Shown: piece after piece, positions 4,912 to 62,791 of the stretch
How the letters are laid out: every line of letters starts with the position of its first letter
How positions within the stretch are numbered: the stretch's first letter is position 1
NCBI GenBank assembly: GCA_963841935.1
Contig: CAWJEP010000005.1
Location: forward strand, 164,003 to 228,002
DNA from: an uncultured bacterium
GTDB taxonomy: Bacteria; Patescibacteriota; Minisyncoccia; Phycocordibacterales; UBA6065
Direction of reading: 5' to 3'
DNA length: 64,000 nucleotides
Position numbers and translations under genes: made by a program
The notes under the pieces: model-generated
What the model was told of the DNA's origin: nothing
Databases searched by the model: none
The model's input: only the letters and a program-made list of their open reading frames with translations

Positions 4912-5910
4912 ATGCTTAATCCTTCACAAAAACTCAATACGAAAATGTTTGACGCTGATGTCGAGCAAATGCCGATACGAAAAGGTTTCGGAGAAGGACT
5001 CGTCGTCGCCAGCGAAGAAAACAAAAATGTCGTTGGGCTTTGCGCCGACCTGACCGAGTCCACGCAGATGTATCTTTTCAAAAATAAATTCCCTGAAAGA
5101 TTCGTCGAGGTCGGCGTCGCCGAACAAAACCTTGCCACAGTCGCGTCAGGCATGGCGGCGATGGGCAAGATTCCTTTCATAAGTTCTTACGGTACTTTTT
5201 CTCCCGGAAGAAATTGGGAACAAATCAGGACGACTATTTGTTTCAACAATCAGCCGGTCAAAATTGCCGGCAACCACACCGGCGTCTCCGTCGGTCCCGA
5301 CGGCGGCACGCATCAGGCGATTGAGGACATCGCCATCGCCCGCGTTTTGCCTCGTATGGTAGTAATTTCGCCTTGCGACGCTCTGGAAGCCAAGAAAGCC
5401 ACTATTGCCGCGGCAAAGACCAACACGCCCGTATACATTCGTCTCGCGCGCGAGAAAACCCCCGTGATGACGACAGACGCGACGCCGTTTGAAATAGGCA
5501 AAGCGCAAGTTTTCTACGACCCGCCGGCGGGGAAGCCGGATGTCGCGATAATCGCCACAGGTGCACTTCTCTATAAAGCCCTCGTCGTTGCGCGCGAATT
5601 TCAAAAAGAAAATATCGGCGTCCGCGTCATAAATCTTTCGACAATCAAACCGCTCGATGAAAAAACGATTTTAAGAGCGGCAAAAGACGCGAAAGCAATA
5701 GTTACCGTCGAAGAACATCAAATCGCCGGCGGTATGGGAAGCGCCGTCGCGGAGTTTCTCTCGGCAGTCTATCCTGTGCCGATGGAACGCATCGGCGTCA
5801 AAGACCAATTCGGCCAAAGCGGCACGCCGGAAGAACTCATCGAACATTACGGTATGGGTGTCACGCACATCAAAGAAGCGGTAAAGAAAGTTTTGAAGAG
5901 AAAAATCTAA
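4912..5910 (+). CDS. Transketolase, C-terminal (pyrimidine-binding/C-terminal domain) subunit
   Basis: 'FVEVGVAEQNLATVASGMA' transketolase pyrimidine-domain motif. The gene follows the N-terminal subunit directly. Confidence 0.85.
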   Translation: MLNPSQKLNTKMFDADVEQMPIRKGFGEGLVVASEENKNVVGLCADLTESTQMYLFKNKFPERFVEVGVAEQNLATVASGMAAMGKIPFISSYGTFSPGRNWEQIRTTICFNNQPVKIAGNHTGVSVGPDGGTHQAIEDIAIARVLPRMVVISPCDALEAKKATIAAAKTNTPVYIRLAREKTPVMTTDATPFEIGKAQVFYDPPAGKPDVAIIATGALLYKALVVAREFQKENIGVRVINLSTIKPLDEKTILRAAKDAKAIVTVEEHQIAGGMGSAVAEFLSAVYPVPMERIGVKDQFGQSGTPEELIEHYGMGVTHIKEAVKKVLKRKI

Positions 5911-6533
5911 GGAAGCGGTTCTTGTTTGCGGCCCGAGAGAGCGTCGGAAAGAGTTTCGCGGTCGATGTATTCGATTTCAGCGCCGGTAGAGAGTCCGCGA
6001 CCGAGAACGGAAACTTTTATTTCGTGTTTTTTGACCGACTCGCGGATTGCGTCTTCGATTGTGGCTCGTGTGTTATCGCCTTCGGGATTGAGGCTCGTGG
6101 CGATAATAATTTCTTTCAAATCCTTTCTGTCTTTATTTATGCGAGAAACCAATTCTTTCGTACGAAGCGGGCTTTGTTTTTTTGCGGAGAAAGCCGACGT
6201 GCCGCCGAGAATAAAATACAAACCTTTGTAGAGATTGGTATTTTCGATACTTTCAAAATCCACATCGCGCGGCAAAACCATCAGTAGGGAATGGTCGCGG
6301 CCGCCATCGGCGCAAATGCCGCAGGCATTTGCGCCGCCTTTGGCTTCAAAAAACCGAAAGCACACGGAGCATTGCCTGACATTTTCGTCCATAAACTCTA
6401 TTTCTTTGACGAAATCTTCGCGGAAAGTTTTGTTTTTATGCAAAAGAAAATAAACGAAGCGTTCGGCTTGGCGCGGGCCGATACCGGGAAATTCGCGGAA
6501 TATTTCTTTGAGCTTTTCGAGCGAGTCAGCCAT
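5907..6533 (-). CDS. recR: Recombination protein RecR
   Basis: The C4 zinc finger 'CSVCFRFFEAKGGANACGIC' and a Toprim domain match RecR. Start is the ATG at 6533 (MADSLEK). Confidence 0.85.
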   Translation of the reverse strand: MADSLEKLKEIFREFPGIGPRQAERFVYFLLHKNKTFREDFVKEIEFMDENVRQCSVCFRFFEAKGGANACGICADGGRDHSLLMVLPRDVDFESIENTNLYKGLYFILGGTSAFSAKKQSPLRTKELVSRINKDRKDLKEIIIATSLNPEGDNTRATIEDAIRESVKKHEIKVSVLGRGLSTGAEIEYIDRETLSDALSGRKQEPLP

Positions 6534-6534
6534 A

Positions 6535-7913
6535 TTAATTTTCCGCTTGCGCGAATTCTCCGAAATCGGCTTTCTCAATCGGCACGAAAGATGACTTGTC
6601 CTTATCGAAAGAGAGCTGAATCCTGCCGGTCGGGCCGTTCCTGTGTTTCTCAACGAGGATTTCGGTGGTGATGAAACTTTTTTCCCTGTTTTCTTCGCTG
6701 TATTTGTCTTCCTGATGAATAAACATCACGATGTCCGCGTCTTGCTCGATTGAGCCAGAGTCGCGCAAGTCGGAGAGGCGAGGGCGACCGCCGCGGCTTT
6801 CCACGGCGCGGGAAAGCTCGAGAGCGCGAGCACTGGGATATCGAATTCTTTCGCCATTTGTTTGAGCGAGCGGGAAATTTCGGTGATTTGCTGGACCAAG
6901 TTGTCGTTTTTGATGTTCGTCGGCATCATAAGCTGGAGATAGTCGACGATGACGAGGCCGAGCTTGCCTTCACGCTGTAGGCGACGAGCGACGGCGCGCA
7001 TTTTGACGATGCTGTTACTGCTTTGGTCGTCGATGTAAATCGGAGCGGTGGAAAGAGCCGCCAAGCCGTCACGAACAATGCTTAAATCTTTATCGATGTT
7101 TAATTTTCCGGTACGAAGTTTGAAAGCGTTGACGCGCGCTTCGGCGGCGAGCATCCTGTCGACAAGCTGAGGCACGGCCATTTCAAGAGAGAAAATACAA
7201 ACCGGAATCTTGCCGCGCACAGCGACATTTCTCGCGATATCGAGAGCGAGGGATGTTTTACCCATCGAGGGGCGAGCGGCAAGAATAATGAGGTCGGAAG
7301 GCTGAAGGCCGGAGAGGAGGTTGTCTATGTCTCTAAATCCTGTCGGGATGCCGCGCAGAGCGCCTTCGTTGTTGTGAATGTGGTCGAGGCGCTCCCAAGC
7401 TTCGTCAAGAGCGTCTTTGAGATTTATGATCCTGTTTTGCGGCACCATTGCCGAGACGTCGTGAATGATTTTGTTGGCCGCGTCCACTATTTCGTCCACG
7501 TTGCTATCTTCGTCCACGCCGACGTCTTTTATCATTTCTCCGGCTTCTATCATTCGCCTCATCAAAGCTTTCTTGTGGACGATGTCGGCGTAATTTTTTA
7601 TGTTCGAAGTGGACGGCACAGCGGAGACGAGCTCGCCGAGATACGCCGAACCGCCGACGGATTCGAGTTGGCCTTTTTCCGAAAGAAGGTTTGAAAGAGA
7701 GAGTAAATCTATCGGCTCGTTTTTGTTCGAGAGTTCGAAAATAGAATCCCAAATCGTCTTGTGTTTGTTCGAATAGAAAACGTCACCCGTGACAATGTCC
7801 ACGACATCGTGAATAGTGTCGGGTTTGATGATGATAGCGCCAAGCAAAGCGCGCTCGGCTTCGAGAGATTGCGGCGGTGCTTTGAGCAATGCGTCTTTGC
7901 TACGGTCTGCCAT
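6535..7913 (-). CDS. dnaB: Replicative DNA helicase DnaB, interrupted by an apparent 1-nt frameshift near 6810-6818
   Basis: The N-terminal domain and Walker A/B lie in ORF 6726-7913. The C-terminus ('SRGGRPRLSDLRDSGSIEQDADIV') continues in another frame in ORF 6535-6804. The expected 'ALSxLSRAVE' junction is missing one nucleotide. Confidence 0.8.
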
Positions 7914-7983: not shown

Positions 7984-9384
7984 TTAAGATTTTGCTCTGA
8001 CGGATGAGTCTTTTTCCGAATCCAAGACTTCATAGCCGAGTTTTTCGATTTGAATACGGATTTCGTCGGATTTGGCGAAGTCTTTGGCCGCGCGCGCTTT
8101 AGCGCGCGCGGCGAGAAGCTCCGATATTTCTTTCGGAATTTCCGCTTGAGGCGCGAAAAGTTCCAATCCCAATATTTCGTCGGCTGATTTTATGAAAGCA
8201 AGTTTTTCTTTTGCGTCAGCGTCGCTCTCCAACATATTCCAAACCTCAGCGAGAAGTTTCGGCGTATCTAAATCATCCGCGGCGAAGGAAATCGCCAATG
8301 GCGCGCGCGTAGTCTTAGCGGAGTCCTCGGAGCGCACAAGCGCGCCATTGGCGATTTCCGCAGCCTTCGCCTTTAATCTTTTGAACGCATTCGCCGCATT
8401 GTCGAGAGCTTCGAAACTAAAATTGAGCGGCGCGGAATACCTCGCGGTCAAAAGAAAATATCGGTAGGCGAGAGGAGAGTAGCCTTTTTCGACAAGCGTT
8501 GAAAGCGTCAGGAAATTGCCGGCGGATTTCGCCATTTTTCCGCTGTCGATGGTGACGAATGCGTTGTGGATCCAGTAATGTGCGAATTTTTTTCCCGTGG
8601 CGTGTTCCGATTGGGCGATTTCGTTGTTGTGATGGACGGGAATATGGTCGATGCCTCCGGTGTGAATGTCGAAAGTCTCGCCGAGAAATTTCATCGACAT
8701 CGCCGAACATTCTATGTGCCAGCCCGGGTAGCCGAGGCCGAGAGGACTTTTGAAACCCATATGGCCGTCTTTGGAAAATTTCCACAAGGCGAAATCGCGT
8801 GGATTTTTCTTTCCGCCGTCAGCCATTCGCGTCTGACTTTCGCCCAAAGGCGTCAGTCCGCCGAGCCTGCCGTAATCGGAAATTTTTGAAGTGTCAAAAT
8901 ATATTCCGTCGTCCGCGCGGTAAGTCAGACCTTTTTTATCCAACTCTTTGATAAGTTTTAGGTCGGCTTTTAGATAACGGCTCGCGCGCGGGAACTTCGT
9001 GCCTTTGGTTTCGATATTCAAAAGTTTCAAATCATTTTTGAAAGCCGATTCGTATTTGTCGGCAAGTTTCTTTAGTCCATCGAGCGTCATCGGCAAATTT
9101 TCGCGTTTGAGACCTTTGACCATTTTGTCGTCGCCCGAATCGGCGTCGGACGATAGGTGTCCGATGTCGGTAATGTTTATGACTTGTTTTATTTTGTATC
9201 CCGCCGCTTCAAATGTCCGACGCAAAGTATCGGCAAAGACATACGAACGCAAGTTTCCGATATGAGCGAAATCATAGACGGTTGGGCCGCAGTGATACAT
9301 TCCGACCTTGCCATTTTTTATCGGGACGAAAACATCTTTCTTTCCCGAAAGGGAATTTTCCAGTTTTATTTCCTGATATTTCAT
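7984..9384 (-). CDS. cysS: Cysteinyl-tRNA synthetase (carries an in-frame palindromic-element insertion)
   Basis: HIGH-region 'CGPTVYDFAHIGN' and 'KMAKSAGN' motifs. The ORF runs continuously through the repeat copy at 8291-8356. Confidence 0.9.
   Translation of the reverse strand: MKYQEIKLENSLSGKKDVFVPIKNGKVGMYHCGPTVYDFAHIGNLRSYVFADTLRRTFEAAGYKIKQVINITDIGHLSSDADSGDDKMVKGLKRENLPMTLDGLKKLADKYESAFKNDLKLLNIETKGTKFPRASRYLKADLKLIKELDKKGLTYRADDGIYFDTSKISDYGRLGGLTPLGESQTRMADGGKKNPRDFALWKFSKDGHMGFKSPLGLGYPGWHIECSAMSMKFLGETFDIHTGGIDHIPVHHNNEIAQSEHATGKKFAHYWIHNAFVTIDSGKMAKSAGNFLTLSTLVEKGYSPLAYRYFLLTARYSAPLNFSFEALDNAANAFKRLKAKAAEIANGALVRSEDSAKTTRAPLAISFAADDLDTPKLLAEVWNMLESDADAKEKLAFIKSADEILGLELFAPQAEIPKEISELLAARAKARAAKDFAKSDEIRIQIEKLGYEVLDSEKDSSVRAKS
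8291..8356. repeat. Palindromic repeat element copy B, inserted in frame within cysS (16-bp perfect inverted arms atcgccaatggcgcgc/gcgcgccattggcgat)
   Basis: Core gcgtagtcttagcggagtcctcggagcgcacaagc belongs to the same family as 1466-1500. It translates as ...EIANGALVRSEDSAKTTRAPLAIS... in CysRS. Confidence 0.8.
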
Positions 9385-17082: not shown

Positions 17083-17095
17083 GGAGAAAATTATA

Positions 17096-18199
17096 TCACA
17101 GGGCTTTCGAGGAACGAGAGATGTTGAAAATAATTCCCACTTCTATTAAAAGCAAGATAAGCGCCGTGCCGCCCTGCGAAACGAATGGGAGTGGAATGCC
17201 GGAAAGCGGTAGAAGCCCGATCATGGCGCCGATGTTGACGAACGCTTGAATGAAAATATAAGAAGCAATGCCGACGACCAGATATGAGCCGAAAGAATGG
17301 TCTACTGCGCGCGCGACTTTGAGAGCCCGCATGACAAAAAACATAAAAAGTCCGAGAAGGGCCACGGAGCCGACGAAACCGAATTCTTCGGCGGCGACGG
17401 CGAATATCGAATCGCCGACTGGCTCGGGTAGGTCGCCGAATTTTTGGATACTTTGGCCGAAACCTCTCCCCACCGCGCCGCCGGAACCGACGGCGATGAG
17501 AGATTGTTGTATTTGGTAGCTAGCCGTCAAAGAATTTTCCGACGGATTGAGATACGTCTCGATGCGTTGCATGACGTAAGGGCGAAGAAACGCAACGGAG
17601 CCGAGAAGGACCACGCCTATGACGATAAGCGTGGTTATGTGGGAAAGTTTTCCTCCGGCGGAAAAATACATGAAAAAAAGCGAAGCGGCAATGACGAAAA
17701 AAGTGTCGGTATCTTTTTGAAGCAGGCAGAGCGTGGCGACGATACCAATGATAATGACGGTCGGAAGAAGTCCGAGCCTCCAAGTCGCCACTTGGTCCTT
17801 GGCGGCGGAAAGCCACATAGCAAAGTATATTATCGAGGCGATTTTCAAAAATTCTGACGGCTGGAAAGAAAGCGCGCCAAGATTTAGCCAGCGTATGGCG
17901 CCGCCGTACTCGAGTCCCAAATGCGGAACAAAAAGCAAGAGGTTGAGAAACACGGCGGCAATAAAAATATACAAGGCAAAAGGACGGATTTTCTTGTAAT
18001 CAATCTTGGAAAAGACCCACATTAAAATCAGTCCGGGAATGAAAGCAAAAAATATTTGCTTTAGGGCTATGGAAGTGAAATACGAAGTGCCGCGCGAAAG
18101 AAATCCGAGCGCGGCCGAAAGAAAAATCAAAATCCCGACGGCGCAAAGTATCAAAGTCGAGACGAGAAGCTGTTTGTCTACGGAACCTTCGGTTCTCAT
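17096..18199 (-). CDS. ftsW: SEDS-family cell-division/peptidoglycan polymerase FtsW (RodA/FtsW family)
   Basis: A multi-TM SEDS protein in ftsW-murG synteny. Start is the ATG at 18199 (MRTEGS...). Confidence 0.8.
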   Translation of the reverse strand: MRTEGSVDKQLLVSTLILCAVGILIFLSAALGFLSRGTSYFTSIALKQIFFAFIPGLILMWVFSKIDYKKIRPFALYIFIAAVFLNLLLFVPHLGLEYGGAIRWLNLGALSFQPSEFLKIASIIYFAMWLSAAKDQVATWRLGLLPTVIIIGIVATLCLLQKDTDTFFVIAASLFFMYFSAGGKLSHITTLIVIGVVLLGSVAFLRPYVMQRIETYLNPSENSLTASYQIQQSLIAVGSGGAVGRGFGQSIQKFGDLPEPVGDSIFAVAAEEFGFVGSVALLGLFMFFVMRALKVARAVDHSFGSYLVVGIASYIFIQAFVNIGAMIGLLPLSGIPLPFVSQGGTALILLLIEVGIIFNISRSSKAL

Positions 18200-31768: not shown

Positions 31769-31843
31769 CACAGGATGTGCGATATTTTTGAGCGCGTAAG
31801 TCTTAGCGAAGCGCACAAGCGAAAAAATATCGCACATCCTGCG
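31769..31843. repeat. Palindromic repeat element copy C in the grpE-dnaK spacer (arms gcacaggatgtgcgatattttt / aaaaatatcgcacatcctgcg)
   Basis: Core gagcgcgtaagtcttagcgaagcgcacaagcga matches copies A, D and E. Confidence 0.85.
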
Positions 31844-46507: not shown

Positions 46508-49393
46508 CTAGTTTGGAACAATAAAATTTATTATTTTGTTTTTCACGTAAATTATTTTCGACGGTGTTTTTCCGGAGAGCCATTTCTCTAATTCCGACGC
46601 GGCAAAAGCGACTGCTTTTGCCGCGTCTTCGTCGGCATCCGCGGGCACCTCAATCACCGCGCGAACTTTGCCGTTTACTTGTACGGCAATATTTACTTTG
46701 GCGTCTTTGATAAACGCTTCATCCCACTTAGGCCAATCGGAAAGATGTATGGACTTTTTGTTTCCAAGCGAGCGCCATAATTCTTCGCTTATGTGTGGAG
46801 CGAAAGGCGCGAGAAGCTTCAAATAGCTCTCAAAATCGGCGCGAGCTATTGTCGGCACCTTGTCAAAAGCGTTTTGCAAAATCATAAGCGAACTTATCGC
46901 CGTGTTGAAACGCAAATTGGCGATGTCTTCGGTAACTTTCTTGATTGTTTTGTGTAAAAGCGTGTTTGTCGAAGAAAAAACAGCCTCTGGCGAGCGCGTA
47001 GTCTTAGCGGAGTCGGCGGAGCGCACAAGCGAGCCAGAGGCTGTTTTTTCGGAGACTTTCCACACGCGTTCGATGAACCGCCGCGAGCCAATCATACTGT
47101 CGGTGGACCATGCTATGGCTTGATCGAAAGGTCCCATAAACATTTCGTAAACGCGCAAAGTGTCGGCGCCGTATGTCGCGACTATGTCGTCGGGATTTAC
47201 GACATTGCCGAAACGTTTGGACATTTTTCTGCCGTCTTCGCCCATTATGAGTCCGACCGACTGCAATTTTTTAAACGGCTCGATTGTCGAGACAACGCCA
47301 ATGTCGTAAAGAAATTTGTGCCAAAAACGCGCGTATATGAGATGGCGTGTGGCGTGCTCGGCGCCGCCCACATAAAAGTCCACGCTGTTCCAATATTTTT
47401 CTTTTTTCGGAGAAACTAAAACCTTGGAGTCTTTCGGGTCCATATATCGCAAGTAATACCAAGAGCTCCCTGCCCATTGCGGCATCGTATTCGTCTCTCG
47501 TTTCATTCCTTTGAAATTGACCCATTTAGAAATCTCAGCCAAAGGCGACTCCCCCGTTCCCGTCGGTTCGTAATATTTCACTTTCGGCAATACCACCGGC
47601 AAATCTTTTTCCGAGACCGGCACTATTTTATTTCCGTTATGAAGCACCGGGATCGGCTCACCCCAATAGCGCTGCCGTGAGAAAACCCAATCTTTCAATT
47701 TGTATTTCGTCACCCATTTTCCGCCGGCTTTTTCGATGGCGTTCCTATCGGCAAACGGTTCGTCCTTTACGGGCAACTTGAACTTTTCCGCGAACGCCGC
47801 GTCTCTCTCGTCGTGTTTCGGCACTCCCATCACGGCTCCCGTGCCGTAATCGGCAAGGACATAGTCAGCAATCCAGACCGGCACCTCTTCCCCATTCACT
47901 GGATTTACCGCCTTGATTCCTTTCAATTCAACGCCGGTTTTTTCTTTCTTTGCGTCCGTGCGCTCAATTTCCGTTTTGATTCTCGCGGCGGCGACATATT
48001 TCACGACTTCTTTTTCGTTTTTCACTTCATGCAAAAGTTTTTCCACGAGCGGATGCTCCGGAGAAAGCACGACATACGTCACGCCGAAAAGCGTGTCTGG
48101 ACGAGTAGTGAAAACTTTTATTTTTTCCGTTTGATTTTTTATGGCGAAATCGATTTCCGCGCCTTCGCTTCGGCCAATCCAATTTCTCTGCGCCTCTTTT
48201 ATGGATTCCGGCCAATCAAGAAGCGGCTTCACAATATGGCGTGGCGCGCCGTCCATTACCAAATCCCAGCCGAGTTTCGAACCTTCGGCCGTCATTGCGT
48301 CACGAACTTTTTCCTCGGGAAGCCAAGTGACTTCGTGTTTGGCTTGTTCGTCAGCTACGACAGGAGCTTGTTCGCCGTCTTTTAGTTTGAAATAAAAAGA
48401 AGTGAAATGTCCGACGCGGTTTTCGTCTTTCGGCGGATGGAAAAATGTCGAGTGGTATTGACCGGCGCTTCTTTTCACGAGCGTCAGGTTTTTAAATCCC
48501 GTCTCTTCGAATATTTCCGCTCGCGCCGCTTCTTCCGGCGTCTGGCCTTTTTCGATGCCGCCAGTGATAGGAGTCGTCCAATCCACCTTTTTCCATTTGA
48601 GAACTATAAATTTCTTCTCCGACCAGTGTTCGACAAAAGCGCATATGGCGTTTCTCGGAACAAACGGCTTGTCCAATCTCACTTTGCCCGGAACATCGCT
48701 ATTCATATGGGTGATTCCAAATTCGCCATTCGGCAATGTCTCAAAAATGTCGCCGTTTGGCAAAACATTGGTGTCCAAGTCTTTCAAAAGTCTGTCGGCG
48801 TAATCGGTGATTTTCAAAACCCACTGGCGCATCGGTTTCTTCTCGACCGGCGTGCCGCAGCGCTCGCAGCGACCGTCTTCGACGTCTTCGTTCGCGAGGC
48901 CGGTCTTACACGACGGACACCAATTTATCGGCTCGTATGATTCGTAAGCCAAGCCTTTTTCCAAAAGTTTGAGAAAAATCCATTGCGTCCATTTGTAATA
49001 TTTCGGGTCGGTCGTGTTGATTTCCCTACTCCAATCATAATCAAAACCAATGATTTCCAGCTGTTTTTTGTACCTTGCGACATTTTTCGCCACGGCCACG
49101 ACCGGATTGGTCTTGGTCAAAATGGCGTAATTTTCCGCCGGCAAGCCGAAAGCGTCGAAACCCATTGGATGTAAGACGTTGTGCCCCTGCATCCTTTTCA
49201 TTCGGGAGACGATGTCGGTCGCGATGTAGCCCTTCGGATGGCCGACATGAAGACCTTCGCCCGAAGGATACGGAAACATATCGAGAACATAAAACTTGGG
49301 CTTGGGAGAATCATCCTTGGTCGCGTATATTTTCTTTTTCGCCCACCCCTTCTGCCACTTTTTTTCTATTTTCTTATGGTCGTATTGTTTCAT
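46508..49393 (-). CDS. leuS: Leucyl-tRNA synthetase carrying (i) an inserted NUDIX hydrolase domain and (ii) an in-frame palindromic-element insertion
   Basis: 'HVGHPKGY' HIGH motif, 'KMSKRFGN' and editing/anticodon domains. A Nudix box 'GGIEKGQTPEEAARAEIFEETGF' sits between '...LKDLD' and 'WPESIKEAQRNWIGRSEG'. Start is the ATG at 49393. Confidence 0.9.
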   Translation of the reverse strand: MKQYDHKKIEKKWQKGWAKKKIYATKDDSPKPKFYVLDMFPYPSGEGLHVGHPKGYIATDIVSRMKRMQGHNVLHPMGFDAFGLPAENYAILTKTNPVVAVAKNVARYKKQLEIIGFDYDWSREINTTDPKYYKWTQWIFLKLLEKGLAYESYEPINWCPSCKTGLANEDVEDGRCERCGTPVEKKPMRQWVLKITDYADRLLKDLDTNVLPNGDIFETLPNGEFGITHMNSDVPGKVRLDKPFVPRNAICAFVEHWSEKKFIVLKWKKVDWTTPITGGIEKGQTPEEAARAEIFEETGFKNLTLVKRSAGQYHSTFFHPPKDENRVGHFTSFYFKLKDGEQAPVVADEQAKHEVTWLPEEKVRDAMTAEGSKLGWDLVMDGAPRHIVKPLLDWPESIKEAQRNWIGRSEGAEIDFAIKNQTEKIKVFTTRPDTLFGVTYVVLSPEHPLVEKLLHEVKNEKEVVKYVAAARIKTEIERTDAKKEKTGVELKGIKAVNPVNGEEVPVWIADYVLADYGTGAVMGVPKHDERDAAFAEKFKLPVKDEPFADRNAIEKAGGKWVTKYKLKDWVFSRQRYWGEPIPVLHNGNKIVPVSEKDLPVVLPKVKYYEPTGTGESPLAEISKWVNFKGMKRETNTMPQWAGSSWYYLRYMDPKDSKVLVSPKKEKYWNSVDFYVGGAEHATRHLIYARFWHKFLYDIGVVSTIEPFKKLQSVGLIMGEDGRKMSKRFGNVVNPDDIVATYGADTLRVYEMFMGPFDQAIAWSTDSMIGSRRFIERVWKVSEKTASGSLVRSADSAKTTRSPEAVFSSTNTLLHKTIKKVTEDIANLRFNTAISSLMILQNAFDKVPTIARADFESYLKLLAPFAPHISEELWRSLGNKKSIHLSDWPKWDEAFIKDAKVNIAVQVNGKVRAVIEVPADADEDAAKAVAFAASELEKWLSGKTPSKIIYVKNKIINFIVPN
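46974..47050. repeat. Palindromic repeat element copy D inserted in frame within leuS (arms aaaaaacagcctctgg / ccagaggctgtttttt)
   Basis: Core gagcgcgtagtcttagcggagtcggcggagcgcacaagcgag. It is translated as ...KTASGSLVRSADSAKTTRSPEAVFS... in LeuRS. Confidence 0.8.
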
Positions 49394-49823
49394 TTTTAAA
49401 TTTGCGCAGAGCGAGATATATGAGTGCGATGAGAGCAATGCCGAGAATGACGACTCTCATCCAGCCGTAAGCCGACGACCAATATCTGAAAGACGCTATG
49501 ACAAGCGTGAGTATTCCGGAGAACGAAAGCGATGTGGAAACCACGGCATTTGTTTTCAAAAAGAAACTTAGGACGATGAGAATGACTCCGACGGCGACGA
49601 GAGTCATAAAGACTTCCGCCTGATAATTATTTTCCGCGGCGGTGTAATTATTTGAGCAAATGACATCGTTGGATTGCGGCGTAATAACGTCCGTTTGCGG
49701 GCAGAAATCGTTATATTGTGGCTCTTGGTAAATAAGCGAAAGAGAATAATTTATGAACATATTGGCGACGATGACGATGCCAATGATGAGCGACCATTTG
49801 AGAAGTTTTGATTGCTTTTGCAT
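49374..49823 (-). CDS. Hypothetical membrane protein (3-4 TM)
   Basis: Hydrophobic helices. It overlaps the leuS start by about 20 nt. Confidence 0.5.
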   Translation of the reverse strand: MQKQSKLLKWSLIIGIVIVANMFINYSLSLIYQEPQYNDFCPQTDVITPQSNDVICSNNYTAAENNYQAEVFMTLVAVGVILIVLSFFLKTNAVVSTSLSFSGILTLVIASFRYWSSAYGWMRVVILGIALIALIYLALRKFKNETIRP

Positions 49824-49847: not shown

Positions 49848-49932
49848 AAAAATAAAAAACGCACGTATTTTCTCGCTTGTGCGCTTCGCTCCGACTTACG
49901 CGCTCGAAAAATACGTACGTTTTTTATTTTTT
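49848..49932. repeat. Palindromic repeat element copy E (core reverse-complemented relative to copies A-D; arms aaaaacgcacgtatttt / aaaatacgtacgttttt, one mismatch)
   Basis: ctcgcttgtgcgcttcgctccgacttacgcgctcg is the exact reverse complement of the core of copy A. Confidence 0.85.
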
Positions 49933-49945
49933 GTAACAACCGACT

Positions 49946-50191
49946 TTACATCTTCGGGGCCATTGCCGCGTCCGACGCGCAAGTCTTGCAATCCTTCTTG
50001 TGGGTAAAGACTAGGACAAGCGCCGAAACGCCGACTAGAACATAGACCAATGCCTCAAGCCACGGCCACGAGCCGAGGAGAAGATTGACCACGTTCCAGT
50101 TGCCGCCGAACCAATCTCCCAAACCGACGAGTCCCCAGTTGAGGCCGCCGATTATGAGAAGAATGAAGGCGATTTTATGAGTTGCTCTCAT
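49946..50191 (-). CDS. DUF378-family small membrane protein
   Basis: 'KIAFILLIIGGLNWGLVGL' is the DUF378 signature. Confidence 0.7.
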   Translation of the reverse strand: MRATHKIAFILLIIGGLNWGLVGLGDWFGGNWNVVNLLLGSWPWLEALVYVLVGVSALVLVFTHKKDCKTCASDAAMAPKM

Positions 50192-55259: not shown

Positions 55260-58200
55260 TTAACAATTCCAAATCACTCCGTTTATATCCATAATCGACG
55301 CGGCCGGCATTCCATTGACTGTTTTTATTGAAGTTTTATCGAGATTGTTTATTGTTTTTAGTTCCACGACGCAAACAGATGGGCTGACCGAAGGTGAGAT
55401 ACTCGGTGACGGGCTGACGCTTGGACTGGGAGAAACGCTCGGTGAAATTGACGGTGATGGACTGATTGATGGTGAAGCTGATGGACTTGGAGAAGTGCTC
55501 GGTGAGAGTGACGGTGAAAGTGACGACAAAGGTGACGGTGATATGGATGGCGATATCGATGGAGATTCGGATGGAGAGATAGATGGACTAAGAGACGGCG
55601 AAGGGCTGACGCTCGGTGACAAAGATGGGCTCGGACTGACAGATGGAGATACCGAGGGTGAAAGGCTTGGGCCGATGGACGGCGAAAGTGACGGCGAAAG
55701 TGATGGGCTGATACTCGGCGAGAGACTTGGCGAGAGAGACGGTGATGGAGAAACTGACGGGGAAACTGAAGGACTTAAACTTGGACTAAGAGATGGTGAG
55801 GGCGAAACCGAAGGAGAAATGCTCGGAGAAAGCGATGGTGAAAGTGATGGGCTCGGACTAACTGAAGGTGAAATGCTCGGCGAGAGAGACGGGCTGAGTG
55901 ACGGCGACAAACTCGGCGAAAGTGAAGGACTTGGAGATACGGACGGCGAAACGGACGGAGAAATACTCGGCGAGAGAGATGAACCAGCTGAAGGAGAAAC
56001 CGAGGGAGAGATACTTGGCGAAAGTGACGGACTTGGGGAAACGGACGGCGAAACCGAAGGTGAAATGCTTGGCGAGAGTGATGGGCTTGGCGAAACCGAC
56101 GGCGAAATACTCGGTGAAAGTGAAGGAGAAAGTGACGGAGACAAACTCGGCGAGAGAGACGGCGATGGAGAAACTGACGGACTAACTGAAGGACTTAAAG
56201 ATGGCGAGAGCGAGGGACTTGGTGAAGTCGAAGGTGAAACGCTTGGGCTAAGCGAAGGTGAAAGAGACGGCGAGAGACTCGGCGATAGACTTGGGCTCGG
56301 TGAAACTGAGGGTGAAACCGACGGAGAAATACTTGGCGAGAGTGAAGGGCTTGGACTAACCGATGGTGAAATACTTGGTGAAAGAGATGGAGACAAACTT
56401 GGCGAGAGACTCGGCGAAATGCTCGGGCTCGGTGAGACCGAAGGGCTGACTGATGGTGAGATGCTCGGTGAGAGTGATGGCGAAGGTGAAACCGATGGTG
56501 AGATCGATGGTGAGAGAGATGGACTAAGTGATGGAGAAAGTGATGGCGATATCGAAGGGCTTGGACTGACTGATGGTGAGACCGAAGGACTCAAACTCGG
56601 TGACAGAGACGGTGATGGCGAAACCGACGGCGAAATACTCGGTGAAAGTGAAGGAGAAAGTGACGGAGACAAACTTGGCGAGAGAGACGGCGATGGAGAA
56701 ACTGACGGACTAACTGAAGGACTTAAAGATGGCGAGAGCGAGGGACTTGGTGAAGTCGAAGGTGAAACGCTTGGGCTAAGCGAAGGTGAAAGAGACGGCG
56801 AGAGACTCGGCGATAGACTTGGGCTCGGTGAAACTGAGGGTGAAACCGACGGAGAAATACTTGGCGAGAGTGAAGGGCTTGGACTAACCGATGGTGAAAT
56901 ACTTGGTGAAAGAGATGGAGACAAACTTGGCGAGAGACTCGGCGAAATGCTCGGGCTCGGTGAGACCGAAGGGCTGACTGATGGTGAGATGCTCGGTGAG
57001 AGTGATGGCGAAGGTGAAACCGATGGTGAGATCGATGGTGAGAGAGATGGACTAAGTGATGGAGAAAGTGATGGCGATATCGAAGGGCTTGGACTGACTG
57101 ATGGTGAGACCGAAGGACTCAAACTCGGTGACAGAGACGGTGATGGCGAAACCGACGGCGAAATACTCGGTGAAAGTGAAGGAGAAAGTGACGGAGACAA
57201 ACTTGGCGAGAGAGACGGCGATGGAGAAACTGACGGACTAACTGAAGGACTTAAAGATGGCGAGAGCGAGGGACTTGGTGAAGTCGAAGGTGAAACGCTT
57301 GGGCTAAGCGAAGGTGAAAGAGACGGCGAGAGACTCGGCGATAGACTTGGGCTCGGTGAAACTGAGGGTGAAACCGACGGAGAAATACTTGGCGAGAGTG
57401 AAGGGCTTGGACTAACCGATGGTGAAATACTTGGTGAAAGAGATGGAGACAAACTTGGCGAGAGACTCGGCGAAATGCTCGGGCTCGGTGAGACCGAAGG
57501 GCTGACTGATGGTGAGATGCTCGGTGAGAGTGATGGCGAAGGTGAAACCGATGGTGAGATCGATGGTGAGAGAGATGGACTAAGTGATGGAGAAAGTGAT
57601 GGCGATATCGAAGGGCTTGGACTGACTGATGGTGAGACCGAAGGACTCAAACTCGGTGACAGAGACGGTGATGGCGAAACCGACGGCGAAATACTCGGTG
57701 AAAGTGAAGGAGAAAGTGACGGAGACAAACTTGGCGAGAGAGACGGCGATGGAGAAACTGACGGACTAACTGAAGGACTTAAAGATGGCGAGAGCGAGGG
57801 ACTTGGTGAAGTCGAAGGTGAAACGCTTGGGCTAAGCGAAGGTGAAAGAGACGGCGAGAGACTCGGCGATAGACTTGGGCTCGGTGAAACTGAGGGTGAA
57901 ACCGACGGAGAAATACTTGGCGAGAGTGAAGGGCTTGGACTAACCGATGGTGAAATACTTGGTGAAAGAGATGGAGACAAACTTGGCGAGAGACTCGGCG
58001 AAATGCTCGGGCTCGGTGAGACCGAAGGGCTGACTGATGGTGAGATGCTCGGTGAGAGTGATGGCGAAGGTGAAACCGATGGTGAGATCGATGGTGAGAG
58101 AGATGGACTAAGTGATGGAGAAAGTGATGGCGATATCGAAGGGCTTGGACTGACTGATGGTGAGACCGAAGGACTCAAACTCGGTGACAGAGACGGTGAT

Positions 58201-60012
58201 GGCGAAACCGACGGCGAAATACTCGGTGAAAGTGAAGGAGAAAGTGACGGAGACAAACTTGGCGAGAGAGACGGCGATGGAGAAACTGACGGACTAACTG
58301 AAGGACTTAAAGATGGCGAGAGCGAGGGACTTGGTGAAGTCGAAGGTGAAACGCTTGGGCTAAGCGAAGGTGAAAGAGACGGCGAGAGACTCGGCGAAAT
58401 GCTCGGGCTCGGTGAGACCGAAGGGCTGACTGATGGTGAGATGCTCGGTGAGAGTGATGGCGAAGGTGAAACCGATGGTGAGATCGATGGTGAGAGAGAT
58501 GGACTAAGTGATGGAGAAAGTGATGGCGATATCGAAGGGCTTGGACTGACTGATGGTGAGACCGAAGGACTCAAACTCGGTGACAGAGACGGTGATGGCG
58601 AAACCGACGGCGAAATACTCGGTGAAAGTGAAGGAGAAAGTGACGGAGACAAACTCGGCGAGAGAGACGGCGATGGAGAAACTGACGGACTAACTGAAGG
58701 ACTTAAAGATGGCGAGAGACTCGGCGATAGACTTGGGCTCGGTGAAACTGACGGACTGACTGAAGGACTTAAAGATGGCGAGAGCGAGGGACTTGGTGAA
58801 GTCGAAGGTGAAATGCTCGGCGAGAGAGAGGGCTGAAAGTGACGGCGAGAGACTCGGCGATAGACTTGGGCTCGGTGAAACTGAGGGTGAAACCGACGGA
58901 GAAATACTTGGCGAGAGTGAAGGGCTTGGACTAACCGATGGTGAAATACTTGGTGAAAGAGATGGAGACAAACTTGGCGAGAGACTCGGCGAAATGCTCG
59001 GGCTCGGTGAGACCGAAGGGCTGACTGATGGTGAGATGCTCGGTGAGAGTGATGGCGAAGGTGAAACCGATGGTGAGATCGATGGTGAGAGAGATGGACT
59101 AAGTGATGGAGAAAGTGATGGCGATATCGAAGGGCTTGGACTGACTGATGGTGAGACCGAAGGACTCAAACTCGGTGACAGAGACGGTGATGGCGAAACC
59201 GACGGCGAAATACTCGGTGAAAGTGAAGGAGAAAGTGACGGAGACAAACTCGGTGAAAGACTCGGCGAAAGACTTGGACTTGGAGATACGGAGGGTGAAA
59301 TGGACGGAGAAAGAGATGGAGAAATACTCGGACTAAGCGATGGACTAAGTGACGAAATAAACCATGTGATTTGAATGACTCCGTTTCCTCCCTGTCCTCC
59401 TGTGTTACCGTTTCTTCCCGACCCTCCACCACCGCCTCCATAGTTTGCTCCGTTAGCGCCAGTTGCGTTTACTCCTCCAGCTCCTCCGTTTCCGGCTGGA
59501 GTTCCCCCATTTGCTCCACCAGCGTGAGTTCCCGACCCATTCGCTCCGGTTCCTCCGTTTCCAGTGTTCCCGGCTCCTCCACCTCCTCCACCTCCGTTGT
59601 TGCTACCTCCGTTTCCTCCGTTTCCTCCGTTGTGTGACGTCCAAGTGACGACTCCGTTACCGGTTGTGTTGCTATTACCCCCGACTCCACGTGCGCCACC
59701 GGCGTTGCCTCCACCACCTCCACCGGCCGCCTCGATGATAAGAGTGTTGCCCGCAGTATTGAAAAATGTGGTTCCGCCAGCGCCGCCGGATGCGTTTGCG
59801 GTTCGTGTTCCGCCGTTTCCGGCGGAATAATTAAAAGCGATGTTCGGACCAGATATGGTTATAGTTGTCTGAGCCCAAGCGCCACCACCACCACCACTAC
59901 CGTTGTTGCCTCCACCACCTCCACCTCCACCTCCAATAACCTGAACAACCGCGGAAGTTGCTGTGGTGCTATTCCATGTACCGCTACCTGTAAGATTTGA
60001 TGTTGTCGCCAT
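55260..60012 (-). CDS. Giant (about 1580 aa) protein: Gly/Asn-rich N-terminal domain followed by more than 1100 aa of (S-P-S-L/I/V)n low-complexity repeat. Interrupted by one frameshift at about 58836-58850.
   Basis: ORF 58690-60012 starts with a non-repetitive Gly-rich domain and runs in frame into SPSx repeats. ORF 55260-58652 continues the same repeat. The repeat consensus gains +1 nt at about 58845. All neighbours are minus-strand. The plus-strand alternative (acidic GExxGE repeat, ORF 55315-58836) cannot be excluded. Confidence 0.55.
55400..59340. repeat. Tandem-repeat DNA: 12-nt (4-codon) units organised into 528-bp higher-order repeats (at least 4 near-identical copies at 56101-58212, plus partial copies)
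   Basis: 'accgaaggactcaaactcggtgacagagacggtgatggcgaaaccgacggcgaaatactc' recurs at 56581, 57109, 57637, 58165 (period 528) and again at 58561 (period 396). Confidence 0.9.
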
Positions 60013-60042: not shown

Positions 60043-61236
60043 CTACCGACTATCAAATGCTTTCCTTGTTTTATCTATAGACCATATATTTCCCGCTTCA
60101 TTTTCGCTGTATATATCAAATTCGAAAAGCGCGTCTTTGACACTCTGTCTATCAAAGTCATGTCCGCAAAGAATTTTTTTACACTTCGGATACCACGCGT
60201 TTAGGTCTCTTAAGACGGACTCTTTGTCATGAGCGCCGTCGATAAAGACCATGTCTATGGAGTTATCTTCAAAATGCTTCGCCGCCTCGGCGCTATCCAT
60301 TTTTAATATTTCGACGTTTTTGAAACCCGACATATTCCGTCTCAAATCCGATTCGGCGTCGGGATTAAATTTTGATTTCTGAGAGAAATTATCTACAAGT
60401 GTCACTTTCCCGGGACATCCGCTGGCGATGGCGTGACCGCTTTTTCCTTTCCAGCTTCCAATTTCAACGACCGATTTCATTTTTTTGGCCGTGAGATAAA
60501 GCCAGGTCATTTCCGACAAGAGCAAATACCCTTCTATTTTGGGGTCTTTATAATCGCTGATTTCCCAATTAGCCAAAGTTTTTATCATTCCTTTAACTTT
60601 TTGCTTGGTAGGTATTACATATTCATGCCACAGGTAGTTTCCTCCGGCGTTTATTTCCTGGGTCAGTTGTGTGACGGTTTTGAATTTCAACCCGTATTTG
60701 GCTATGTTTCTTGAAAGAGTGTAATCGTCAATGAGATGTTCCCGCGTAACAACTGTGTTTAACTCTTTCTGAATGGGAAAAATATTTCCAAGCGCCTCTT
60801 CGTAGGGAATATCAAGAGGGTGCCAGAGGTCAAGGCACCAATCCGAGGCAATGGTGAACCAGTTGCAAGAACCGATATTCCTGCCGTCACGGATGAAATA
60901 TTTGTCATAACGCGAACGGTTATTGGCCATGTCACAACCGTTATGAACCACGGTGTCTTTCTTGATAAAATTCGTCACATCAAAAAAATCCGGGTGAACC
61001 AGAGCGTCCGAGTCGATATAAATATTCCAATCGTTGCCCATTTTTTTGCCGAGCTCGTAAATTTGCAATTTTTCGTAAACCGGCGGCATATTTGGAAATT
61101 TGCGCTCGGAAATTATGTGGAAATCCGCTCCGATTTTCTCCGCGTAGCGTTTTATCAAGGGATAAGTAAGCTCTGTTATTTCCGGAGCGTAATTATCGAC
61201 GTTCAAAGTGAAAATTGTTTTTTTAAGTTTTGACAT
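60043..61236 (-). CDS. Putative GT-A-fold glycosyltransferase (DxD) fused to a C-terminal class-I SAM-dependent O-methyltransferase domain
   Basis: N-terminal half is paralogous to the next two genes ('KKTIFTLNVDNY...YEKLQIYELG...IDSD'). C-terminal 'VVEIGSWKGKSG...IDMVFIDGAHDKESV' is an O-MTase (Methyltransf_24-like) motif. Confidence 0.5.
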   Translation of the reverse strand: MSKLKKTIFTLNVDNYAPEITELTYPLIKRYAEKIGADFHIISERKFPNMPPVYEKLQIYELGKKMGNDWNIYIDSDALVHPDFFDVTNFIKKDTVVHNGCDMANNRSRYDKYFIRDGRNIGSCNWFTIASDWCLDLWHPLDIPYEEALGNIFPIQKELNTVVTREHLIDDYTLSRNIAKYGLKFKTVTQLTQEINAGGNYLWHEYVIPTKQKVKGMIKTLANWEISDYKDPKIEGYLLLSEMTWLYLTAKKMKSVVEIGSWKGKSGHAIASGCPGKVTLVDNFSQKSKFNPDAESDLRRNMSGFKNVEILKMDSAEAAKHFEDNSIDMVFIDGAHDKESVLRDLNAWYPKCKKILCGHDFDRQSVKDALFEFDIYSENEAGNIWSIDKTRKAFDSR

Positions 61237-61237
61237 T

Positions 61238-61969
61238 TTATTTTATATAATTCCAATTTTTTAATTTCTCCCTGATTTTCTCGGCTCTGTCTTTTTCTTG
61301 AACCGAAAAATCATAATAAAAATATTCATCTCCGCCCCTTCCTATTTCATTGAGAAGGTTCACGAAAGTTTTGAATTTTATGCCGTATTTGGCGATATTT
61401 CTGCTTACAACGTAATCATCAATGCCTTGCTCATTGGTGTGTCCGGTCATTTCTTCACGGTGAATGATATTAATATTTTTGAGCGCTTCGGGAGCTGTCA
61501 TATCGTCAAGCGGTTTCCAAATCTCATGACATAGTGATGAAGCGACTGTTAGAAATGATGTGCTGTTTATATTTCTGCCGTCTCGTCTAAAGAAATTGTC
61601 GTAACTGAAACGGTTACCCGCGAAATCAACGCCGAAATTTAAAACCGTATCTTCTGGAAGAACTTCAGTTATGTCAAAAAGGTCCGGATGAACCAAGCAG
61701 TTCGGGTCGATGTAATAGTTCCAGTCATTATCCTTTCCAAGTTCGTAAATCTGAAGTTTTTCGTACATTACGGGGTAATTCGGAAACTTGCGTTCATTGA
61801 TTATCTTCAAATCCGCGCCAATTTTGTCTGCGAATCTTTTAAGAAAAGGTAAGGTAAGTTTCACTACTTCGATATCATAATTGTCAAAACCCAGCGTGAA
61901 AATGGTTCTCTTTAATTTTTTTTGTGGTTGGTCGGAGTACATATATAAATTATTAATTAATAACCCCAA
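61238..61969 (-). CDS. Putative GT-A-fold glycosyltransferase, paralog 2 of the tandem triplet
   Basis: 'KRTIFTLGFDNYDIEVVKLTLPFLKRFADKIGADLKIINERKFP...YEKLQIYELGK...YYIDPN' is paralogous to 60043-61236 and 61957-62649. Confidence 0.5.
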   Translation of the reverse strand: MGLLINNLYMYSDQPQKKLKRTIFTLGFDNYDIEVVKLTLPFLKRFADKIGADLKIINERKFPNYPVMYEKLQIYELGKDNDWNYYIDPNCLVHPDLFDITEVLPEDTVLNFGVDFAGNRFSYDNFFRRDGRNINSTSFLTVASSLCHEIWKPLDDMTAPEALKNINIIHREEMTGHTNEQGIDDYVVSRNIAKYGIKFKTFVNLLNEIGRGGDEYFYYDFSVQEKDRAEKIREKLKNWNYIK

Positions 61970-62649
61970 GAACTAATGCGTTCCTTTATTTCTTTGATTT
62001 TTTTTTCTTTGGGGATACCGAACTGGTGGTATATAAGCCCATAATCCTGTAAGCCCCTCTCGACGAAGACATCCCTTAGGGCCTTATATTTTAGGCCGTA
62101 TTTGGCGATATTTCTGGAAATAAGATAATCATCAATAAGATAATCGGGTGTGTAACCTATTAATTCTTCGTTGTGCCAAGGGTGGAAACGGCTGAATATT
62201 TCTTTCTTGGTCAGATCGGTAATCGGCTCCCACATTTCGCGACACAGATTTGAAGCGAACATCATACAACTTCCCATAGACACGTGTCTTCCGGCTCGCA
62301 AAAAATAATTGTCGAGCTCGTAGTGTCCCTCCAGAGGATTTACTCCCCATGTTGAAACAGTGTCGTTTGAAATAACCTCGGTGATGTCAAAAAGTTTGGG
62401 GTTAATCAAAACATCGCAATCAAAAAAAAGTCCCCAATCAATATCTTTACTCAGTTCGTAGATTTGAAATTTTTCGTAAATAACGGGATATTCCGGAAAT
62501 TTTCTTTTGTTAATTTCCACGAACTCGGCGCCGATTTTGTCGGCATACATTTTCATATATGGATAAGTAAGCTTGGTTATATCGTCAGCGTAACCATCAA
62601 TATTGAGGGTAAAAATCGTTTTCTTGATTTTTCTAGGTATGTCATTCAT
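61957..62649 (-). CDS. Putative GT-A-fold glycosyltransferase, paralog 3 of the tandem triplet
   Basis: 'KKTIFTLNIDGYADDITKLTYPYMKMYADKIGAEFVEINKRKFP...YEKFQIYELSK...FFDCD'. Start is the ATG at 62649. Confidence 0.5.
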   Translation of the reverse strand: MNDIPRKIKKTIFTLNIDGYADDITKLTYPYMKMYADKIGAEFVEINKRKFPEYPVIYEKFQIYELSKDIDWGLFFDCDVLINPKLFDITEVISNDTVSTWGVNPLEGHYELDNYFLRAGRHVSMGSCMMFASNLCREMWEPITDLTKKEIFSRFHPWHNEELIGYTPDYLIDDYLISRNIAKYGLKYKALRDVFVERGLQDYGLIYHQFGIPKEKKIKEIKERISSWGY

Positions 62650-62791
62650 ATTATTTCTTAATAATTTCCCATTAATTCCCCCGTTCACATAAAGAAAAGG
62701 CAAGTTTATTTTAGTAAACCCGTGAACATATTGTAGCATTTTTAAAATCGGACCTTACATTACGGCATCGCCTTCACTCAGACTCTGGATT

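Follow-up and report, generated by a model that had tools for sequence, protein, structure and literature searches.

We found that a long hairpin at positions 49848-49931 of a 64,000-nt stretch of contig CAWJEP010000005.1, from an uncultured bacterium of the Patescibacteriota (this whole stretch is called the window below), is one of five related palindromes there. [quoted passage not shown] The family is distinguished by a conserved loop combined with a hypervariable stem, by frequent reversal of that loop, and by nesting. A limited full-text literature search returned no prior report of it for Patescibacteria or Saccharibacteria. The host range is a narrow Patescibacteria lineage, in which the closest relatives are labelled Paceibacterota and one metagenome-assembled genome (MAG) is labelled Saccharibacteria. 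This MAG, CAYZCB01 (L004-L099), is recorded as ‘Candidatus Saccharibacteria’; the closest named homologues of leucyl-tRNA synthetase (LeuRS) are Paceibacterota, Parcubacteria or Patescibacteria group, and the MAG label may be imprecise.

The initial annotation of this DNA had reported that copy E and a second hairpin, copy A, share a 35-nt core exactly and in opposite orientation. This observation held, as the 35-nt pattern CGAGCGCGTAAGTCGGAGCGAAGCGCACAAGCGAG occurs at 1466-1500 on the (+) strand and at 49872-49906 on the (−) strand with 0 mismatches, and the mean number of matches in 100 dinucleotide-preserving shuffles was 0.00. Once the flanking GTATTTT / AAAATAC is counted, the shared stretch reaches about 49 nt, exceeding the reported 35 nt. 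Inverted-repeat analysis showed that each of the two cores occupies the loop of a long hairpin whose stem is nearly perfect. The predicted RNA fold energies were −34.1 kcal/mol for E (z = −5.8 versus shuffles) and −44.5 kcal/mol for A (z = −7.6), and the DNA fold energies were −23.7 and −28.9 kcal/mol, respectively, far stabler than shuffled controls. An nhmmer search of the window with a core profile returned exactly five copies, the same A to E that had been named before:

Copy E, whole hairpin: 49848-49931, 84 bp.
Copy E, left arm AAAAATAAAAAACGCACGTATTTT: 49848-49871, 24 nt, 96% complementary to 49908-49931.
Copy E, core (loop): 49872-49907, (−) strand, reads CGA-GCGCGTAAGTCGGAGCGAAGCGCACAAGC-GAG; extra-A subtype (‘30-type’), nhmmer E = 6.6e-10.
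Copy E, right arm AAAATACGTACGTTTTTTATTTTT: 49908-49931, pairs with the left arm.
Copy A: 1446-1520, (+) strand, arms 1446-1466 and 1500-1520 of 21 nt, 100% complementary; core the same as in E.
Copy B: 8287-8359, (+) strand, 20-bp perfect arms; long core subtype GCGCGTAGTCTTAGCGGAGTCCTCGGAGCGCACAAGCGC.
Copy C: 31771-31841, (+) strand, 19-bp perfect arms.
Copy D: 46974-47050, (+) strand, 18-bp perfect arms; long core subtype.

The arms of copy E have one mismatched pair, which reads C.A on (+) and G.T on (−). The core of copy C differs at 4/35 positions, with its closing pair changed from C-G to T-A (compensated) and GG changed to TT. The arms of A and E had been described as unrelated, and this is correct for the middle and distal stem; however, the proximal GTATTTT and an A-rich outer part are common to both.

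Relatives of these copies were found in one GTDB MAG (CAYZCB01) and, from a few JGI metagenome samples, in 88 contigs; this MAG and these contigs together hold 118 copies, 90 of them unique. The first collection pattern, GCGCGTAN{8,30}AGCGCACAAGCG, was too loose and gave chance matches in GC-rich genomes; CAYZCB01 was the sole genuine MAG among the matches listed for it. Individual elements are ~70-85 bp in size, or ~165 bp in a long form, have no coding capacity of their own, and occur in the window at a density of 5 per 64 kb. The stem comprises 17-30 bp with strict Watson-Crick pairing and a sequence that differs by locus, and pairing stays at or above 85% outward to positions −19 to −21. 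Inside the stem are a tandem GA/GA, then a 2-bp GC/GC closure, and then an asymmetric loop. The closing pair covaries (C-G, T-A or G-C), GA/GA is exchanged for GC/GC in copy B, and G3-C(−3) is exchanged for A-T in a related locus (L191). The near-invariant loop, ~33 nt long, reads GCGTA(A)GTC-(GG/TT)-AGC-(small variable centre)-GCGCACAA, and its centre is a small variable hairpin in its own right: GC-GAA-GC (where GAA may be AAA, GTT, TTT or GGA), GCCCGC-TCCG-GCGGGC, or a 7-bp stem in L141. Copies fall into three length classes, ‘30’, ‘29’ and ‘38’. The ‘30’ class has the extra A, is mostly intergenic, and has a proximal arm RTATTTTN and distal arms of which the left is rich in A and the right in T. 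The ‘29’ and ‘38’ classes lie mostly within open reading frames (ORFs), and their arms align without gaps to the consensus GGnGRAARYRGnnYYYGRC.

The initial annotation had proposed an identity matrix of cores against arms, and this matrix bears out the division between loop and stem: among the 43 unique copies of the ‘30’ class, mean pairwise identity was 97.7% in the core, 63% in the proximal 8 stem bases and 33% in the distal 14 stem bases, the last being chance level given that base composition predicts 31%. In the same 43 copies, stem pairing was 94.4% versus 65.8% when shuffled (0/500) and 35–54% with slid partners, and changes on both sides were seen in 21/22 stem pairs. The inner 2-bp helices are invariant and therefore lend no covariation support. 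Inverted arms are present in every copy, and all that is conserved in them is the 7-8 core-adjacent bases (intergenic type) or a loose consensus (in-gene type). It had been suggested that the family would be a conventional MITE if its arms proved alignable. This holds in part: the core-adjacent RTATTTTN is conserved, and the in-gene arms align without gaps, so that in-gene copies, taken as whole hairpins, do behave as a conventional small palindromic repeat. An identical 33-nt core is found in 33/43 unique ‘30’ copies, from many loci and genomes. Because the same core is shared so widely within the subtype, the identity of A and E is the family consensus and no sign that the two are linked by recent copying.

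Copies within protein genes are common, as 38/60 classified copies span long ORFs, with a core orientation relative to the host ORF of 19:19. In the window, copy B is in frame within the cysteinyl-tRNA synthetase (CysRS) gene (7984-9384, (−) strand), where it is translated as EIANGALVRSEDSAKTTRAPLAISF, and copy D is in frame within the LeuRS gene (46508-49438, (−) strand), where it is translated as EKTASGSLVRSADSAKTTRSPEAVFS. Related in-frame copies, in both orientations, were found in TopA, PolA, RNase R, TsaD, MurB, ParB, GatC, Alr, G6PD, ComEC and a VirD4-like ATPase. All four stop-free frames are used (SLVRFAKTTRS, ERVVGAKRTSE, ERVSRSEAHKR and GARKSERSAQA), and the insert adds 15-26 residues to conserved proteins. 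Retrieval by protein homology, which is independent of the core, recovered the LeuRS copy in 6 lineages. The insert is absent from most Patescibacteria LeuRS homologues, in which the loop has 30-38 residues versus 48-53 with the insert. In an AlphaFold2 model of the C-terminal part of LeuRS (mean predicted local distance difference test score, pLDDT, 79.9), the residues encoded by the core form a coil of low confidence (pLDDT 54-67) flanked by two helices that exceed 90, and the model places the insert in a surface loop. Other repeat-like inserts, e.g. ‘...RRVIPAKAGIQKVGVDMDSRFRGNDK...’, occupy the same LeuRS loop (RFxERVW to LHKTIKKVT) in the homologues P0099, P0027, P0038, P0086 and P0088, and their sequences suggest that this loop generally attracts the in-frame insertion of repeats. 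Separately, residues ~286-382 of LeuRS form an inserted domain that matches NUDIX (PF00293, E = 7e-12) and precedes the editing domain, and many Patescibacteria LeuRS homologues list a NUDIX, HAD, PF06821 or even Y1 transposase domain (the last in P0112) beside the synthetase domains.

Of the other copies in the window, A begins with the rplU stop codon (L21, 1048-1446), E is 13 nt past the stop of a DUF378 gene (49946-50191, (−) strand) and just upstream of the next (−) strand ORF, and C separates dnaK from a 95-aa ORF, both of them (−) strand genes, and is upstream of dnaK. Across the family the commonest intergenic setting is between convergent ORFs (10/22 intergenic copies), with a distance of 0-16 nt to one or both stops in most cases. 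In intergenic copies the distal arms resemble an A-tract, a GC stem and a T-tract, and one orthologous site has the element in L145, a plain terminator in L106 and L176, and nothing in L144. A scan with the Rho-independent terminator consensus did not call the copies, whose loop is 33-41 nt versus the canonical 3-8 nt. Judged from sequence, the intergenic copies probably double as bidirectional terminators.

The family turns over between related genomes. We observed presence/absence differences at six or more orthologous sites, and at these the indel is the entire hairpin. Comparisons of filled and empty sites include:

L120 filled; window empty at ~5899-5919.
L148 and L166 filled, with differing arms and opposite orientations; window empty at ~17091-17113.
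L145 filled; L144 empty.
L151 filled; L146 and L133 empty.
L126 and L183 filled; L133, L004 and L146 empty.

Orthology here rests on BLAST spans and inspected alignments, since the pairwise screen of flank identity was too lenient below ~0.8; the filled/empty pairs are 70-90% identical with A/T-rich junctions. No filled/empty comparison revealed a site with the same stem without a core, and empty sites were also without the stem. All that pre-exists at empty sites is a few of the outermost A/T bases, on one side. We rejected the idea that the arms are copied from the target (inverted target duplication) for the inner arms, because empty sites hold neither arm. Mobility or turnover of the family, which the initial annotation had inferred from A and E, is therefore borne out by orthologous sites that are filled in one genome and empty in another. 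Its further proposal, that the core alone is copied, is right in part: some changes do affect just the core (three cores at the LeuRS site, a shared centre variant and a chimera between arm types, all described below), but in the filled/empty pairs the whole hairpin is gained or lost.

Copies also persist. The related locus L029 is syntenic with 45.8-50.3 kb of the window at 75-80% nucleotide identity and has orthologues of both E and D. The E orthologue (L029 3216-3245) has the inner 31 core nt identical and a different stem, and by this alignment copy E is old, predating the split from the L029 lineage. A recent event between A and E, as had been proposed, is not supported, given this age (flanks ~76-79% identical) and the occurrence of the consensus core in 33/43 copies. 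The D orthologues in L029 and L109 show compensatory stem substitutions and a different centre, those in L189 and P0083 have a reversed and short core, and the B orthologue in L113 has arms that are 95% identical. In more distant lineages the LeuRS copy shows the change of G3-C(−3) to A-T, which is compensated (L191), and a decayed centre (L192). A sequencing or assembly artefact was ruled out by the independent assemblies (NCBI, ENA, JGI, Logan), the in-frame position in conserved genes and the conservation at orthologous sites.

Comparison of orthologous sites further revealed that the loop reverses in place. The core is reversed between lineages at no fewer than eight orthologous sites (seven in one comparison plus ParB in L169/L178), among them L015 vs L164/L159, L126/L183, TsaD, ParB, PolA, LeuRS, G6PD and L125/L163. 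Between L015 and L164/L159 the flanks are ~79-90% identical (by BLAST and by reading of the alignment), the arms are 82% identical, and the core is exactly reverse-complemented. At three of these sites (L015/L164, L126/L183 and TsaD) the homology of the stems is visible and the cores are of one subtype; several others differ in subtype as well, so replacement is possible there. We saw no reversal at a flank identity >86%. Since cores are reversed between orthologues with homologous arms, core orientation is, as far as these alignments indicate, uninformative, and the significance earlier given to the opposite orientation of A and E is not borne out. Hairpin-promoted inversions of 4-50 bp are well known in plastid DNA, where they are repeated and homoplasious (PMC12371153). 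Changes in the core also seem to be uncoupled from those in the arms. At the LeuRS site, three lineages have three different cores between homologous arms, and at the orthologous LeuRS, PolA, G6PD and other sites differing core subtypes are found on stems that are homologous in whole or in part. Non-orthologous copies have the centre variant CCCGCTCCGRCGGG in common, and the GG/TT, A indel, centre and end variants are found in all combinations.

In at least nine copies, the element forms the tip of a ~165-nt hairpin in which two boxes are conserved and the outer arms, perfectly paired in their turn, vary. This composite hairpin was found in L127 (two copies), L135, L107/L179, L141, L181, L152, L167 and L148, with the inner core reversed in L148. 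From the outside inward it consists of the outer arms, the boxes CTGCGGAACGC(AA/TTC)GCGCCCTCACGC and GCTGCGGGTTCGGTCCTCG, and then the inner arms and core; flanking the inner hairpin, the outer boxes read CTGCGGAACGCAAGCGCCCTCACGC ... GCTGCGGGTTCGGTCCTCG. The composite may be one conserved-loop element nested inside another. A chimeric copy was found at L141 2527-2564, in which the left arm is of the intergenic type (CACGTATTTTTGA), the right arm is of the in-gene type (GAGTCGGAATCCG), and the two are unpaired, an arrangement that, from its sequence, would be as expected from recombination between two cores.

We conclude that the relevant structure is DNA, as a hairpin/cruciform or as a duplex, and not a strand-specific RNA, based on the 19:19 orientation in host ORFs, the reversal in situ with conservation kept, the neutral share of G.T mismatches and the lack of an Rfam match. 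About one in three mismatches in the stems is G.T, the share to be expected if wobble pairs are not selected for. Rfam gave 0 gathering-score matches in the window and 8 related loci, and at E ≤ 10 the matches were weak and to microRNA precursors, i.e. generic hairpins. It is accordingly very improbable that the copies constitute a structured non-coding RNA or self-cleaving ribozyme family with its own promoter. Stem covariation, very stable predicted folds and the resemblance of the proximal-arm TATTTT to a −10 box on both strands might be read in that way, but G.U pairs are not in excess, there is no orientation bias relative to genes, the core stays conserved when reversed in situ, the inner 2-bp helices are invariant without covariation support, and the Rfam result was as above. 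We also rejected the reading of the GA/GA junction as a kink-turn or another known RNA motif because the bulge position does not fit, GC/GC can replace the junction, and orientation is not conserved. Other candidate origins that we discarded were a tRNA or tmRNA origin or adjacency, as none is in the window and the ten related loci have one unrelated tRNA-Ser, and a phage or plasmid origin, as searches of viral contigs and of phage and plasmid records gave no match.

How a palindromic repeat of this kind might behave can be outlined. The hairpin would be inserted or lost as a unit by a trans factor encoded elsewhere. Complementarity of the arms may be kept through hairpin-templated correction (quasi-palindrome template switching), through selection for the hairpin, or both, and the loop may flip by recombination or template switching between the arms, the mechanism proposed for the 4-50 bp inversions of plastids. 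The loop could stay constant as the recognition site of a mobilising or binding protein, or through short-tract gene conversion among copies, and its near-invariance in old copies points to one of these, recognition or conversion. Copies within genes would survive solely in permissive surface loops and by virtue of the four stop-free reading frames. We also considered whether a system dedicated to hairpins acts on the conserved loop, e.g. an enzyme of the HUH or recombinase type that recognises the loop in its single-stranded form on extruded hairpins and moves, flips or overwrites loops independently of stems; such a system, which we think quite unlikely, could also nest hairpins, as in the 165-nt form. 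If true, it would represent a new mode of DNA mobility or gene conversion, acting genome-wide and even within essential Patescibacteria genes.

Several observations weigh against a mobile repeat family. The window has no transposase, recombinase or Y1/HUH gene, and a tblastn search with a single Y1-domain query, from P0112, found no homologue in ~600 kb of related loci. Filled/empty pairs show no clear target-site duplication, just ambiguous 2-3 nt repeats (e.g. AGA), and the turnover may therefore not be transposition in the strict sense. Most related loci were fetched by patterns that demand an intact core, and core conservation is partly a product of this ascertainment. In the LeuRS series, found by protein homology with no core bait, GTAGTC...CACAAG is kept in five lineages; this set also holds one clearly decayed copy (L192) and one that is slightly changed (L191). 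A selfish repeat leaves unexplained the intact loops in copies whose flanks have diverged by tens of percent. Moreover, the long form conserves the loop and outer boxes while the intervening stems vary, the pattern expected of a functional hairpin, and the loop, at 25-33 nt, far exceeds that of canonical terminators.

A rival reading is a host function, in which the loop would bind a chromosomal protein (e.g. one for termination, topology, cruciform binding or replication), the stem, of DNA or of DNA and RNA, would need only to pair, and purifying selection would keep the copies, with mobility secondary. A conserved loop with covarying stems is what this predicts, as is a loop kept in old orthologous copies, including the bait-free LeuRS copy. 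The two conserved modules of the long form, with variable paired stems between them, and the position of intergenic copies at gene ends between convergent genes agree as well. The function would have to be orientation-independent, which fits double-stranded or cruciform recognition. We nevertheless consider it unlikely, since it gives no reason for a site inside LeuRS, CysRS, PolA and similar genes, close relatives do without a copy at many sites, copies can decay (L192), and no candidate binding protein was identified. If instead the core with ~8 proximal stem bases were the unit, pasted into pre-existing hairpin tips such as terminators or spread from loop to loop by short-tract gene conversion, then the unrelated distal stems would be explained, with distal arms at chance similarity beside a conserved core and RTATTTTN, as would intergenic distal arms that look like ordinary A/T-tract terminator stems. 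The differing core subtypes at orthologous LeuRS, PolA and G6PD sites, the centre shared by non-orthologous copies, the free combination of GG/TT, A indel, centre and end variants, and the L141 chimera, read as recombination within cores, point the same way. This is distinctly improbable, however, because empty sites are without the stem in every filled/empty comparison and no stem-without-core site was found; perfect 18-27 bp palindromes cannot pre-exist in coding sequence, yet in-gene copies are common; and in-gene arms have a consensus, so arms travel with the core. Orientation independence, the presence of copies both in permissive frames in genes and in terminator-like palindromes, and conservation at orthologous sites would also suit an uptake-signal-like sequence, kept by biased DNA uptake and recombination in a competent, nucleotide-scavenging lineage. 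That is scarcely credible here: copies come and go as ~75-bp blocks and not by point mutation, their density is low (5 per 64 kb), and the conserved sequence is the loop and not the inverted pair.

The family, read as a palindromic repeat that acts at the DNA level, can be compared with known systems. RPEs are short palindromic repeats found in frame in unrelated housekeeping genes, where the peptide is tolerated, and have no known transposase (PMC10969869). The family described here is similarly palindromic and inserted in frame in functional ORFs of a reduced genome, in LeuRS, CysRS, PolA, TopA and others. RPEs differ in being ~100-150 bp and conserved over their full length, as opposed to the loop and a few adjacent stem bases here. 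They also differ in host phylum; the likeness is one of description (‘works like’, not ‘is an RPE’), as membership is implausible in a Patescibacterium host. To our knowledge, loop reversal has not been described for RPEs. REP elements and bacterial interspersed mosaic elements (BIMEs), with their RAYT (Y1) transposases, are GTAG- and CGTC-tagged palindromes (PMC3733652). Like our copies, REPs are short, numerous palindromes located at the ends of genes; roles in termination, in the stability of mRNA and in DNA topology have been proposed for them, they are mobilised in trans, and a GTAG motif is present here too. However, REPs are extragenic, whereas most classified copies here span long ORFs, and the REP stem is conserved with GTAG at its 5′ foot, whereas here stems vary and GTAG(TC) or GTAAGTC lies inside the loop. 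No RAYT was found here in the ~600 kb of related loci with the one Y1-domain query.

Bacterial MITEs (SPRITE, Correia, ERIC, Coxiella QMITE1/2) include some that mimic Rho-independent terminators or make in-frame fusions (PMC10969869; PMC5896051). They are likewise small, multi-copy, non-autonomous and hairpin-forming, with presence/absence polymorphism, but MITE terminal inverted repeats are conserved and target-site duplications are usual, and here neither the window nor ~600 kb of related loci yielded an autonomous element or transposase sharing ends. QMITE2 has a conserved stem and a divergent tip, the opposite of this family. Plastid hairpins whose 4-50 bp loops flip (PMC12371153) are comparable to the 29-41 nt loops reversed between orthologues here. 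They are, in contrast, single-locus structures and not a dispersed family with a conserved loop. In the replicon origin hairpins of HUH endonucleases, the stem need only pair and a sequence-specific loop is recognised on single-stranded DNA. The likeness is in architecture only, a conserved loop on a variable stem; HUH loops are 9-12 nt and occur once per replicon beside a rep gene, and no HUH gene was found in the window. The resemblance may therefore serve as a lead for the trans-acting factor, not as a classification. By analogy, the family would stand apart from the RPE, REP and MITE kinds that it resembles, being RPE-like in its in-frame insertions and like REPs or terminator-like MITEs in its gene-end position.

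Its architecture is opposite to that of ordinary MITEs and REPs, with an invariant loop, hypervariable complementary stems, frequent in-situ reversal and nesting, and points to a DNA-hairpin mechanism. With this family, the occurrence of selfish DNA within protein genes, of which Rickettsia has been the best-known example, would extend to the Candidate Phyla Radiation, also with very small genomes, and the core enzymes affected include aminoacyl-tRNA synthetases, Pol I, topoisomerase I and ParB. In practice, such repeats can cause assemblies to break and, through the residues that they add to conserved proteins, lead gene callers and alignments astray, and they could serve as lineage markers.

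The gene content of the window is otherwise that of housekeeping genes. In DnaB (6726-7913, (−) strand) the DnaB_C match ends at profile position 177/255 and is followed by an unrelated-looking tail; a frameshift, the remains of an intein or a faulty assembly could each account for this. At 60043-62739 ((−) strand) lie three paralogous units in tandem, each of ~700 nt, the first ORF being Methyltransf_24 and the other two being without a Pfam match. At 55315-58836 ((+) strand) is a 1173-aa ORF of 132/528-nt periodic repeats, rich in Gly, Asp and Glu and without a Pfam match; nearby ORFs carry Ig-like and dockerin domains, and the group may be a surface-protein cluster.

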